A program made the translations under genes and the position numbers. From assembly GCF_013122565.1 (NCBI RefSeq), contig NZ_CP053258.1: a DNA stretch of 64,000 nucleotides; one strand, given 5' to 3'. Position 1 is the first letter of the stretch. Every line of letters starts with the position of its first letter. The notes beneath the pieces are model-generated. The model was not told where the DNA came from and made no database searches. It saw only the letters and a list, made by a program, of their open reading frames with translations. Below are positions 6,972-53,203 of this stretch, in pieces. Source of the stretch: Escherichia coli. Its GTDB lineage: Bacteria > Pseudomonadota > Gammaproteobacteria > Enterobacterales > Enterobacteriaceae.

Positions 6972-7012
6972 CCTGAACTCCATATGACAACCGCCCTGAC
7001 GGGCGGTTGAAT

Positions 7013-13192: not shown

Positions 13193-13283
13193 AACGCCTC
13201 CTGACGCAACAACTTACCCGCACAAAATAGAATTGTGCTGTACAAACGTCCAGTTGGAAAGGCATTTCCTGCGAGGTGCTACG

Positions 13284-17499: not shown

Positions 17500-17560
17500 T
17501 TTAGCCGTCCAGATGTTTACACATCCATAATTGGCGGTTACTGTATATTCCTCAAGCGCA
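17500..17560. promoter_or_regulatory. metE-metR divergent control region with tandem MetJ-box-like octamers
   Basis: agccgtcc agatgttt acacatcc resembles three tandem degenerate AGACGTCT met boxes, between divergent metE and metR starts. Confidence 0.45.
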
Positions 17561-21967: not shown

Positions 21968-21976
21968 AAAATAATG

Positions 21977-22020
21977 TCGGATGCGGCGTAAACGCCTTAT
22001 CCGACTTACTCTGATGACGC
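21977..22020. repeat. REP element between convergent rhtB and rhtC
   Basis: tcggatgcggcgtaaacgccttatccgac palindromic unit. Confidence 0.75.
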
Positions 22021-22028
22021 GTCTGGCA

Positions 22029-22649: not shown

Positions 22650-22712
22650 ACATTAGACTCGCGGGGGAAACGTTTACGGAGTCTTCATCCTGGCACTTTT
22701 TTATCCTGCTGA

Positions 22713-24542
22713 CTACTCTTCGTCATCGCCATCAACATGTGCACGAATCAGCGCCATAAACGGTTTGCCAAAGCGTTCCAGCTTGCGCATCCCAACGCCG
22801 TTAACGCTGAGCATTTCGCTGGCAGTGATCGGCATCTGTTCAGCCATCTCAATCAAGGTCGCGTCGTTAAACACCACGTACGGCGGGACATTGCTTTCAT
22901 CGGCAATCGATTTACGCAGTTTGCGTAATTTGGCGAACAGTTTGCGATCGTAGTTGCCGCCGAAGGATTTCTGCATCGCTTTCGGTTTGAGCGCCACGAT
23001 ACGTGGCACGGCAAGTTGCAAAGAGGATTCGCCGCGCAGCACCGGACGCGCAGCCTCTGTCAGTTGTAGGGCAGAATGCTGGGCAATATTTTGCGTCACC
23101 AGGCCGAGGTGAATCAGCTGGCGGATCACGCTCACCCAATGTTCATGGCTTTTATCACGGCCCATGCCATAGACTTTCAGTTTGTCATGACCATAGTCGC
23201 GGATACGCTGGTTATTAGCGCCACGAATCACTTCCACCACATAACCCATCCCAAACCGCTGATTCACCCGACCAATGGTGGAAAGGGCAATCTGTGCATC
23301 GGTTGAACCATCGTACTGTTTCGGCGGATCGAGGCAAATATCGCAGTTCCCGCACGGCTCCTGCCGCCCTTCGCCAAAATAGTTCAGCAATACCAGACGA
23401 CGGCAAGTTTGCGCTTCGGCAAAAGCGCCCATCGCATTGAGTTTATGACGTTCGATATCCTGCAACTGCCCCTGCGGCTTCTCTTCCAGGCAACGGCGCA
23501 GCCACGCCATATCCGCCGGATCGTAAAACAGCATCGCTTCCGCGGGCAGGCCATCACGCCCGGCGCGTCCGGTTTCCTGATAATAGGATTCGATATTGCG
23601 CGGAATGTCAAAATGCACCACGAAGCGGACGTTAGGTTTGTTGATGCCCATGCCGAACGCCACCGTCGCCACCACAATTTGCAGGTCATCGCGCTGGAAT
23701 TTCTCCTGCACGTCGGCGCGAATATTATTTTCCAGCCCGGCATGATAGGCCGCCGCGCTGATACCCTTGCTTTGCAGACGCGCGGCGGTGTCTTCTACTT
23801 TCGCCCGACTGTTGCAGTAAATAATCCCCGACTTACCGCGTTGTTCCTGCACGTAGCGCATCAGCTGATCGAGAGGTTTGAACTTCTCCATCAGCATGTA
23901 GCGAATATTCGGACGGTCAAAACTGCTAATTTGAATCAGCGGATCGTTCAGCCCCAGCAGGCGCACGATATCCTGGCGCGTGGTGTCGTCGGCTGTGGCG
24001 GTCAGCGCCATAAACGGCAGCGTCGGGAACCGCTGGCGCAACTGACCGAGCGCGGCATATTCCGGGCGGAAATCGTGGCCCCATTGGGAGATACAGTGCG
24101 CTTCATCAACGGCTAATAACACCGGATTCCAGTGCGCCAGATGCTCAAGAAAGTTATCCAGCATCAGGCGTTCCGGCGCGATATACAGTAAGCGAATTTG
24201 CCCGGTGCGACAGCCTGTCATCACGTCAAGTTGCTGCTCGCGGGTTTGCGTCGAGTTAAGGCACGCCGCCGCCACGCCGTTGGCTTGCAGTTGATCCACC
24301 TGATCTTTCATCAACGAAATCAGCGGTGAAACAACCACAGTAAGGCCGTTTAGCAATAAGGCAGGAATTTGATAGCAAAGGGATTTTCCGCCACCAGTGG
24401 GCATGACAACCAGGCAATCGCGACCGGAAAGCACAGTGTCGATAATTTCTTCCTGGCCGGGGCGAAACTGTTGGTAGCCAAAGGTTTCTTGTAAAACCTG
24501 TTTAGCTCCGGACTCCAGATTCAACACTTCCGCCTGCGCCAC
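22713..24542 (-). CDS. recQ: ATP-dependent DNA helicase RecQ
   Basis: Track ORF 22713..24548 (611 aa, GTG shown as M); trimmed to the second GTG giving [11 protein letters not shown] and 609 aa; DEAH box, RQC and HRDC regions present. Confidence 0.93.
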
Positions 24543-24558
24543 ATTCACCCCGATTGCC

Positions 24559-24591
24559 TGAAATAAAAACAGGCGCTATTTTCAGCGCCTG
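24559..24591 (-). terminator. Rho-independent terminator just upstream of recQ
   Basis: Minus-strand hairpin caggcgctgaaaatagcgcctg followed by tttttatttc. Confidence 0.65.
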
Positions 24592-24611
24592 CGCGAGAAA
24601 CTGCAATGCTT

Positions 24612-25070
24612 TTAGTCTCTGAGAGGGTAATCCTGGATACTGGATTCCAGATTTGTCAGGATCAAAGCGACATCGGCATCCGCCAAACGAAACTCCGCCT
24701 GCCATATATTCTCTGACGTATGAAACGTAGGGCATAGCCCGCAAGCCAGTATCACATTGATAATAATGACATCACCGGAATACCCTGTGTATTCGAACTC
24801 CAGGCATGGCTCGGTAAATTCCAGATTTTTCTCTGGGTAGCCATCGGGAGAAGGGCGCTGCAACAATGTGGTAAACCACCTATGAAGCTTTGTTAAGTCA
24901 TATGTCCCTATTGCCGGATCTATCTTTTCAAACCGCTGATTTCCCTGCGTCACGCCCACTTTGAGGAATAACCAGTTACCATCCCAGAAATTACTGGTAT
25001 CAGGATACTGATACCCCATAACATCCAGCGTCAAAGTAACGGCCAGCTCACTATTGCTTAACGTAATCAT
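24612..25070 (-). CDS. Hypothetical 152-aa soluble protein, no family recognised
   Basis: Uninterrupted 459-nt ORF between pldA stop and the terminator, in a region that looks lower in GC than its neighbours; no obvious Shine-Dalgarno; not a gene I recall at this K-12 locus. Confidence 0.5.
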   Translation of the reverse strand: MITLSNSELAVTLTLDVMGYQYPDTSNFWDGNWLFLKVGVTQGNQRFEKIDPAIGTYDLTKLHRWFTTLLQRPSPDGYPEKNLEFTEPCLEFEYTGYSGDVIIINVILACGLCPTFHTSENIWQAEFRLADADVALILTNLESSIQDYPLRD

Positions 25071-32913: not shown

Positions 32914-32971
32914 TGGCACCGCCGCGTAAAAATAGGTTGGGCGGAGAAGCGCAACGCCCTCCGCCAAAAAG

Positions 32972-32987
32972 CTGGGTATATATACAG
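32972..32987. promoter_or_regulatory. LexA (SOS) box upstream of uvrD
   Basis: ctgggtatatatacag fits CTG-N10-CAG, ~60 nt upstream of the uvrD start. Confidence 0.7.
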
Positions 32988-32996
32988 ATTTGCTGA

Positions 32997-51244: not shown

Positions 51245-51275
51245 AAACAAAAAACCCCGCCGAAGCGGGGTTCAA
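51245..51275 (-). terminator. Rho-independent terminator of the tRNA operon
   Basis: Minus-strand hairpin ccccgcttcggcgggg followed by tttttt, directly after the proM 3' end. Confidence 0.8.
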
Positions 51276-51715: not shown

Positions 51716-51817
51716 TTAGCGCCGTTGCGGGGGTGGATAATACGGACTTCCCACCCCTCTGTCTAGTCCCTTTTTAAATAAATTGCGCGTTTGGTTACGG
51801 TTTGTGCGTTTTGCTGC

Positions 51818-53203
51818 TTATTCCTCCAGTTTATGCGCTTTACCGTGGCGATTAAGCCCAAAAACTTTATAAATCGCCGTCACCGCCAGCATAAAGATGA
51901 TGCCGACAAACAGCGACATACGCGTATCTTCATTAAAGTACATGCCGATCAAAACACAAATCAGGAATGCCATTGTTACGTAGTTGGCCCACGGGAACAG
52001 GATTGAGCGGAACGGATGGCTGGCAATCGCCGCTTTATGTGCACGCCGAAAACGCAGCTGGCTTATCAATATCACAAACCATGGCACCATCCCCGGAAGC
52101 ACGCTGGCACTGTAGACGTAGACAAACACACGCTGCGGATTGGGAATGATGTAGTTCAGGCATGAGCCAATTAGCAGAATAGCAATAGATACTGCCACAC
52201 CCGCAACCGGTACGCCGTGACGGGAAACTTTCGCCATCGCCGCCGGTAACTGACGGTTTTTCGCCAGTGCGTAGAGCATACGTCCGCAACTGTACATGCC
52301 GCTGTTACAGCCAGAGAGCGCAGCCGTCAGCACCACAAAGTTGATAATACCCGCCGCTGCGGTAATGCCGATTTTGGCGAAAGTCAGTACGAACGGGCTG
52401 CCGTTGCTGCCTATTTCATTCCACGGGAAGATGGTGACGATAACGAAAATCGCGCCTACGTAAAAAATCAGGATCCGCCACAGCACCTTGCCTACGGCAC
52501 TGCGCAGCGTCACCTGCGGATTCTTCGCTTCACCGGCAGTAATGCCAATCAGCTCCACGCCCTGGTAGGACGCCACCACAATACACAGCGCGGTCAGGAA
52601 CCCTTTCCAGCCACCCGCAAAGAAACCGCCATGCTCTGTGAGATTGCTAAAACCAATCGACTGCCCGCCATTGCCAAAGCCAAAGAAAATCACGCCCAGG
52701 CCAATGACAATCATCACGATAATCGTGGTGACTTTGATCATCGCGAACCAGAACTCGATTTCGCCGTACAACCGCACCGCCGCCAGATTCGCCAACGCCA
52801 CCAGCGCCACTGCGATCAATGCGGGTATCCACTGCGCCATCTCCGGGAACCAGAACTGGACATAAACGCCAATGGCGGTGATTTCTGAGATCCCCACCGC
52901 CATCCACATAAACCAGTAAGACCAGGCGGTGAGATAGCTAAAAAACGGGCTCATATAACGATGCGCATAAACGGCGAACGAACCGGTAACCGGTTCGAGG
53001 AACAACATTTCGCCCATTGAACGCATGATGAAAAAGACGAACAGCCCGGCGATGATATAGGCCAACAATACGGATGGCCCGGCCCATTTCAGGGTACTGG
53101 CGGCCCCCATAAACAGGCCGACGCCAATGGTGCCCCCCAGGGCGATGAGTTCGATATGTCGAGCTTCCAGCCCACGCTGTAGCTCTGGTTTGTTATCTGC
53201 CAT
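51818..53203 (-). CDS. yifK: APC-family amino acid permease
   Basis: 461 aa, 12-TM amino-acid permease. Confidence 0.9.

Follow-up and report, generated by a model that had tools for sequence, protein, structure and literature searches.

At closely spaced, co-oriented bacterial genes, terminators and promoters may overlap. Such arrangements form a general class rather than a curated family: a strong terminator insulates the downstream gene, and the promoter that overlaps it restarts transcription. The junction between pldA and recQ analysed here resembles this class, and differs from it in that its promoter is proposed from conservation and agrees with the sigma-70 consensus at 7 of 12 positions. 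A different kind of element, the LexA box, is a 16-bp palindrome, CTGT-N8-ACAG, with CTG and CAG 10 nt apart. Irino et al. are said to have announced evidence for SOS regulation of recQ in the title of a paper from 1986.

The closest described counterpart of our locus is the junction of Escherichia coli K-12, whose pldA terminator has the same sequence, and lies at the same distance from recQ, as the one in the window (by which we mean the whole 64-kb stretch of E. coli DNA analysed; Table 1). Of 5425 complete E. coli genomes, at least 5339 carry the 69-nt spacer with 100% identity. As the first-pass annotation of the window had proposed, we compared the K-12 spacer, and in an alignment with K-12 and Nissle the identity begins 15 codons before the end of the ORF that precedes the hairpin and runs through the hairpin, T-tract and Shine-Dalgarno (SD) sequence to the recQ GTG. 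The strains differ further upstream. Here an intact 152-aa WapI-family ORF in the same orientation ends 20 nt before the stem (stop at 24612), whereas in K-12 there are 82 nt between the end of pldA and the stem, with a WapI remnant behind pldA. The locus is the ordinary E. coli pldA-recQ junction with its catalogued pldA terminator, and as such it is already known. Noticing a hairpin so close to recQ is a rediscovery of that terminator and of its long-known closeness to recQ, which carries little weight beyond annotation.

Table 1. Features of the pldA-recQ junction, in window coordinates
Feature	Position	Strand	Basis or remark
recQ, ATP-dependent DNA helicase	22713..24542	minus	GTG start 24542..24540
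SD-like GGGGTGA of recQ	24551..24545	minus	read from sequence; GGGG/GGAG before GTG conserved in alignment
LexA-like string CTG-N9-CAG, CTGTTTTTATTTCAG (ctgaaataaaaacag)	24558..24572		over T-tract; rejected as a LexA box
T-tract TTTTATTT	24568..24561	minus	reads TTTTTATTT if T24569 is included
Terminator stem-loop GCAGGCGCT-GAAA-AGCGCCTGT	24592..24569	minus	direct sequence reading and pattern scan
Core 8-bp stem CAGGCGCT/AGCGCCTG, loop GAAAAT	within 24569..24592	minus	
GAAAAT, hairpin loop, candidate -10	24583..24578	minus	predicted TSS about 24572..24570
TTGCAG, candidate -35	24606..24601	minus	sigma-70 PWM and conservation
WapI-family immunity protein gene, 152 aa	24612..25070	minus	between pldA and terminator; stop TAA 24614..24612
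pldA, outer-membrane phospholipase A, 289 aa	25119..25988	minus	ORF and annotation in matching E. coli records

Materials and methods

Window positions x were converted to MG1655 coordinates as 4005864 + (24542 - x). To count as a strict terminator, a site needed 9 or more pairs, including 6 or more G-C, and at least 7 T in 9; such sites were sought on both strands and compared with 20 Markov-1 simulations. Homologous loci came from two sources, namely a genome scan with the RecQ N-terminus, which gave 12 Enterobacterales loci, and a plain-DNA metagenome scan anchored in the 5' coding sequence of recQ, which gave 75 further loci with 48 distinct upstream sequences. The position weight matrix (PWM) for LexA was made from 28 canonical boxes of E. 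coli, then rendered symmetric; the uvrD and rmuC boxes belong to this training set.

Results

A strong terminator 18 nt ahead of recQ

By pattern scan the hairpin has 10 pairs, 6 of them G-C, and a loop of 4; its stem is GC-rich and 9-10 bp long, with a folding energy of -16.1 kcal/mol. A permissive terminator scan of the 64-kb window yielded 5 sites compared with 2.8 +/- 1.9 in shuffled sequence, which is no enrichment, and the fold z-score of the 61-nt piece was merely -1.4. The strict definition left 3 sites in the window, both strands taken together, compared with a simulated mean of 0.05. A terminator of such strength is not expected to occur by chance. No terminator was found in the interval from pldA to the WapI ORF.

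Between the last T of the T-tract and the recQ GTG there are 18 bases (24560..24543), so that no promoter fits in between. On both the presence of a terminator hairpin just ahead of GTG 24542 and the lack of room for a promoter behind it, the first-pass annotation was right. The GTG itself corresponds to the RefSeq start of K-12 recQ (4005864, with recQ at 4005864..4007693), and all 13 Enterobacterales in the alignment share it. An alternative in-frame GTG at 24548, the choice of the automatic ORF listing, is not conserved.

Termination and read-through in K-12 cells

The hairpin (24569..24592) corresponds to MG1655 4005814..4005837. In SMRT-Cappable-seq of K-12 in M9, a transcription start site (TSS) at 4004814 is linked to a termination site (TTS) at 4005841 (Yan 2018, PMC6131387, Supplementary Data 1). 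The former lies 48 nt upstream of pldA, the upstream co-oriented gene, and the latter is window position 24565, inside the T-tract, so that pldA transcripts end at the hairpin. The nearest known TTS in the same table is the RegulonDB terminator of pldA (b3821), whose centre, 4005825, is the hairpin loop (PMC6131387). The read counts are small: 64 reads begin at the TSS, 17 stop exactly at the TTS, another 30 stop within 50 bp downstream of it and 1 passes, and the site is classed as 'terminator' (PMC6131387). With 47 reads stopping and 1 passing, the reservation that the hairpin might not terminate in vivo is contradicted. We are highly confident that the hairpin and T-tract make up a working Rho-independent terminator, as shown in vivo for K-12, where the sequence is identical. 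Adams 2021 lists no 3' end for recQ or pldA, and Romero 2014 (PMC4681348) has no entry for either gene.

Read-through from pldA into recQ is rare and occurs in K-12 (at least one transcript), and a primary transcript that runs over recQ without full coverage of pldA is also present. The operon variants listed are b3821|b3822 (pldA-recQ) and b3822|b3823 (recQ-rhtC) (PMC6131387). With them the RegulonDB operon pldA was extended to pldA-recQ, and recQ to recQ-rhtC, at least one full-length primary read being sufficient for extension (PMC6131387).

A WapI-family gene reduced to a remnant in most E. coli

The 152-aa ORF matches the Pfam profile WapI (PF24716) with E=1.5e-21 and 77.5 bits against a cut-off of 27, and the match is full-length (residues 12-149, profile positions 9-138 of 138). 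The identical protein WP_171460068.1 is named 'WapI family immunity protein [E. coli]' by NCBI. The ORF is therefore a member of this known family, with a predicted immunity function. It has the full-length profile of WapI-family proteins and differs from them in that no toxin gene lies alongside: no cognate polymorphic toxin gene is adjacent, and since its only neighbours are pldA and recQ, it would be an orphan immunity gene. Close relatives of the protein exist in E. fergusonii, and E. albertii carries a 44%-identical allele at the same site.

By megablast, only 2 of the 5426 complete genomes of E. coli have the intact ORF between pldA and recQ, and all others match only from about 24655 downward. 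Alignment and translation show that K-12 and most E. coli keep just a remnant of 15 codons; the K-12 reading frame ends in LANLESSIQDYPLRD and that of the window in LTNLESSIQDYPLRD, each followed by the stop. Because K-12 keeps the last 15 codons, its pldA-recQ spacer is in part the deletion remnant of a WapI-family gene, a modest addition to what is known of the junction.

The terminator block stays with recQ across Enterobacterales

In Escherichia, Citrobacter, Enterobacter and Superficieibacter, recQ is preceded at 22-28 nt by the block TTGCAG...CAGGCGCTGAAAATAGCGCCTG-T-tract. Metagenome contigs of Klebsiella- and Enterobacter-like type have the block at this position as well, and Photorhabdus has a diverged form. 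It accompanies recQ irrespective of the upstream gene. In Superficieibacter a thioredoxin-like gene lies upstream (the context of locus L007) and the block is retained; the same holds for Photorhabdus and locus L012, where the upstream genes are divergent and a decayed pldA remnant alone is left. The block is absent from locus L111 (2 of the 75 metagenome contigs), where a 1.1-kb insertion, which carries two ORFs on the opposite strand, has taken the place of the whole segment from the stop of pldA as far as the T-tract; judging by this locus, the block is dispensable to recQ. We also considered whether a terminator is a general trait of RecQ genes and rejected this: an upstream terminator match of some kind was found at 16 of 80 recQ loci, compared with 5% of background windows, and the placement 22-28 nt before the gene is confined to the homologous Enterobacterales block and one Shewanella.

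Within the block, variation is distributed very unevenly. Among nine Enterobacteriaceae, 9 of the 11 columns upstream of TTGCAG are variable, compared with 1 of 6 in TTGCAG itself; all 5 columns before the stem vary, compared with 0 of 8 and 1 of 8 in the stem arms and 0 of 6 in the loop GAAAAT; and from the T-tract to the SD sequence variation returns to 9 of 9. Stem pairing is kept in 97.1% of cells in the alignment of 13 Enterobacterales. The changes that do occur in the stem are one-sided and to G.U only, that is, RNA-legal on the recQ-sense strand. Compensatory pairs number 0 in both the 13 Enterobacterales and the pooled distinct sequences, the hairpin thus lacking covariation support because its sequence is nearly invariant. 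The convergent spacer between rhtC and rhtB served as a control in the same genomes, and there each genus has a wholly different hairpin or none. Since the control terminator turns over among the same genera, the hairpin next to recQ is unusually conserved, and this near-invariance of the stem-loop across enteric genera, set against turnover of the control, is one of the points that we report as new.

A candidate promoter within the terminator

We found no mapped recQ TSS in the tables searched, among them Kim 2012 (which has nothing for pldA either), and no relevant literature on a recQ promoter, and a scan at 9 of 12 consensus positions gave no promoter near the recQ start. The best match to the sigma-70 PWM in the 260 nt upstream of recQ is TTGCAG-N17-GAAAAT with 5.39 bits. 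It falls within about the top 0.1% of background, a level at which about one such match per 260 nt is expected by chance. The candidate -35 begins 5 nt past the WapI stop codon, in the terminator itself, and the candidate -10 is the hairpin loop. The block also holds an antisense promoter-like pair, which in E. coli scores 8.5 bits, above the sense site. Since the opposite strand scores higher, the PWM alone does not discriminate between the two, and conservation alone favours the sense site; the antisense (plus-strand) promoter was rejected because its -35 is not conserved despite this score.

The conservation pattern is what draws attention to the sense site. Each of 42 distinct sequences has TTG exactly 17 nt from GAAAAT, although spacer positions 29-32 and 34 differ among them; in the set of 39 distinct sequences, both TTG and GAAAAT are present without exception. 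The variants of the -35 in the pooled set are TTGCAG, TTGAAG and TTGCAC. An invariant TTG and GAAAAT at a fixed spacing, with a spacer that drifts, is the pattern of conservation that a -35 and a -10 would leave, and it suggests a weak promoter in the terminator. Other candidates were discarded: three promoter-like sites in the 3' end of the WapI ORF (24686, 24665 and 24659; 4.98-5.21 bits), none of which is conserved outside Escherichia, and TTGGCA-N18-CAGGAT (5.79 bits), which is created by the K-12 junction and is likewise not conserved outside Escherichia. The first-pass annotation had reasoned that recQ transcription must start upstream of or within the terminator, in the 3' end of the 152-aa ORF, or else depend on read-through. 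Both routes are seen in K-12 long reads; as to position, the best promoter candidate is not in the 3' end of that ORF but in the terminator (24606..24578).

Discussion

The early observation on this junction is confirmed and its interpretation is partly supported; most of the reasoning holds, and its hint at LexA fails. To the known terminator we add, modestly, the WapI remnant and the possibility of an embedded promoter. In our proposed explanation, the hairpin and T-tract, which end pldA transcripts in K-12, would end pldA-wapI transcripts in this strain, and the terminator would shield recQ, which starts 18 nt further on, from upstream transcription. Low-level expression of recQ is then achieved in two ways: by rare read-through of the terminator, and by a separate start, for which a weak sigma-70 promoter that forms part of the terminator would be the most likely source. 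In such a promoter the -35 TTGCAG would lie directly 5' of the stem, the 17-nt spacer would consist mostly of the 5' arm and the -10 GAAAAT would sit in the loop. Initiation would be expected within the 3' arm, and transcripts that begin there without the 5' arm could form no hairpin, leaving a leader of about 28 nt with the SD sequence leading into recQ. A start inside the 3' arm would in this way put the new transcript beyond the reach of the hairpin. We consider this explanation, taken as a whole (terminator, read-through and embedded weak promoter), to be probable. The embedded sigma-70 promoter taken by itself, with its position and TSS as read from sequence conservation, is a more tentative assignment that falls somewhat short of even chances. 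We are a little more hesitant still about the most general form of the idea, namely that the block might be a dual-use module across Enterobacterales, a terminator as RNA, and as DNA a recQ promoter with the loop as its -10 and the TTG 17 nt upstream as its -35, from which starts in the 3' arm escape the hairpin.

One competing view is that the hairpin does nothing more than end pldA/wapI transcription, that recQ lacks a promoter of its own nearby and that the low level of RecQ derives from the few percent of upstream transcripts that escape termination, whether these begin at the pldA promoter or within pldA or wapI. The recorded pldA-recQ read (b3821|b3822) fits with this, as do the roughly 1 in 48 reads that pass the terminator and the failure to find a strong promoter nearby; possible internal sources include a sigma-28 SELEX peak inside pldA (PMC5493296) and the weak promoter-like sites of 4.98-5.21 bits in the 3' end of wapI. 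Those wapI-internal candidates, however, are not conserved outside Escherichia. Read-through alone also leaves the invariant TTG at 17 nt and the invariant loop unexplained, as well as the conservation relative to the control terminator, and it does not account for the persistence of hairpin and T-tract at L013 and L012, two loci with a decayed pldA remnant and divergent upstream genes. We regard it as unlikely to be the full answer, although it is the most serious of the alternatives.

Alternatively, recQ transcripts might begin further upstream, within the spacer or pldA/wapI, with the hairpin acting as a conditional leader terminator whose read-through responds to a protein, an sRNA or nucleotide pools. 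Its placement directly 5' of the SD sequence, similar to that of leader terminators, and its extreme sequence conservation would agree with regulated attenuation, and the number of transcriptional contexts recorded for recQ is 1 in M9 and rises to 2 in rich medium (PMC6131387). Against this, the site was classed by SMRT-Cappable-seq as 'terminator' and not as 'attenuator' (PMC6131387), no Rfam match appears up to E=10, there is no evident leader peptide, and no conserved antiterminator partner is present, the 5 nt directly ahead of the stem and the 11 nt upstream of TTGCAG both varying freely. On balance such regulation seems improbable. Invariance might also be accounted for if the 22-bp perfect palindrome CAGGCGCT-N6-AGCGCCTG were additionally, or instead, an operator for a dimeric regulator, or if the 5' block were the seed of an Hfq-dependent sRNA from the pldA 3'UTR. 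A terminator with a long U-tail is a standard Hfq module, and the 0 compensatory changes in 39-42 distinct sequences suggest that the sequence itself is constrained besides its pairing. Yet the few natural changes in the stem are of the G.U type, which keep RNA pairing and break DNA symmetry; 5' of the stem only TTGnA is conserved, with no longer seed; we found no literature on an sRNA from the pldA 3'UTR; and we know of no regulator whose motif matches the palindrome. Either possibility strikes us as very improbable.

The LexA-like string over the T-tract would overlap the predicted TSS, a typical position for an operator, and like genuine LexA boxes it has CTG and CAG flanking an AT-rich core, with a resemblance to the T-rich uvrB box. 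The first-pass annotation had described it as similar to CTG-N10-CAG without an exact fit, and indeed its triplets lie 9 nt apart instead of 10, one base short. The best 20-mer register over the T-tract, GCCTGTTTTTATTTCAGGCA, reaches 1.2 bits and rank 83 in the window, compared with 12.7-27.8 bits for the training boxes, and none of the top 15 matches in the window falls in the pldA-recQ region; the matrix does recover the uvrD box (32970..32989, 19.6 bits) and the rmuC box (13236..13255, 18.3 bits), both of which were in its training set. The right half-site, with its CAG, is not conserved, reading TTTCAGG, TTTAAGG, TTTCTGG or TTTTGGG across genera. In the text of a Salmonella SOS-regulon survey recQ has 0 occurrences, and we found no open-access source with data on LexA binding to the spacer or on lexA-dependent induction of recQ. 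With spacing, score and variable half-site all against it, a LexA operator that makes recQ damage-inducible deserves practically no credence, and a tempting but wrong reading of the T-tract can be removed.

The pldA-recQ spacer of K-12, which passes for intergenic, is in part a dead immunity gene, and knowing this should help in interpreting the spacer. As for the terminator, a dual constraint on RNA and DNA would, if true, explain why it has stayed nearly unchanged across genera while neighbouring terminators turn over. The comparative data thus offer a cheap prediction of the position of the recQ promoter. If it is confirmed, the junction would be a tidy case of a low-abundance repair helicase that is shielded from the transcription of its neighbour and yet expressed.

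Terminator, candidate promoter and LexA-like sequences

Defining a strong hairpin/T-tract site by at least nine pairs, at least six of them G-C, and at least seven T residues in nine positions, we found only two further sites in the window that match the strength of the pldA/recQ terminator (see table). At this terminator, a promoter candidate facing away from recQ outscores the inferred recQ promoter on the minus strand (TTGCAG-N17-GAAAAT). The predicted antisense promoter would direct transcription into wapI and pldA; its -35 element varies from genus to genus. Two matches of the LexA position weight matrix (PWM) score close to the bottom of the range for real LexA boxes; the genuine uvrD and rmuC boxes are listed with them.

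Features located in the window (unless another locus is named)
Feature	Position	Strand	Remarks
Strong hairpin/T-tract site	6988-7009	+	
Strong hairpin/T-tract site	51252-51273	-	
Antisense promoter candidate TTGCCT-N17-TATTTT	24554-24582	+	Opposite recQ; 8.5 bits
LexA-PWM match TACTGTATATTCCTCAAGCG	17539-17558		12.9 bits; metR-metE intergenic region
LexA-PWM match TGCTGCTTATTCCTCCAGTT	51812-51831		13.2 bits; adjoins thrP/yifK and a tRNA-Arg
Genuine uvrD LexA box	32970-32989		
Genuine rmuC LexA box	13236-13255		
recQ-rhtC spacer	22650-22712		Conserved blocks AAAAAGTGCCAGGATG and CCCGCGAGT
Convergent rhtC/rhtB spacer	21968-22028		Holds REP-like hairpin GTCGGATAAGGCGTTTACGCCGCATCCGAC
WapI gene 3' end (remnant in K-12)	24612-24658; 698-744 in the K-12 locus (L001)		
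Insertion of ~1.1 kb between pldA and recQ	5300-6515 in L111		Enterobacter-like metagenome contigs

Spacers flanking recQ

Both blocks of the recQ-rhtC spacer are common to Escherichia, Citrobacter, Enterobacter and Superficieibacter, and they may be rhtC regulatory sequence; in K-12 long reads, recQ and rhtC lie on one transcript. At the rhtC/rhtB spacer position, other genera carry hairpins unrelated to the REP-like one, or none.

On the other side of recQ, the last ~15 codons of a WapI-family immunity gene persist in the pldA-recQ 'intergenic' spacer of K-12 and most E. coli, and this stretch is a deletion remnant of that gene. Of 5426 complete E. coli genomes, just 2 have the gene intact at this position, as does E. 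fergusonii; E. albertii carries an allele there that is 44% identical. In L111, a metagenome variant of the locus, the insertion supplants the conserved block as far as the T-tract and holds two ORFs on the opposite strand, one of 122 aa with no Pfam match and one for a DUF3828 lipoprotein (PF12883, 8e-32). With this insertion and the WapI gene both lying there, small accessory genes appear to insert recurrently into the pldA-recQ spacer.
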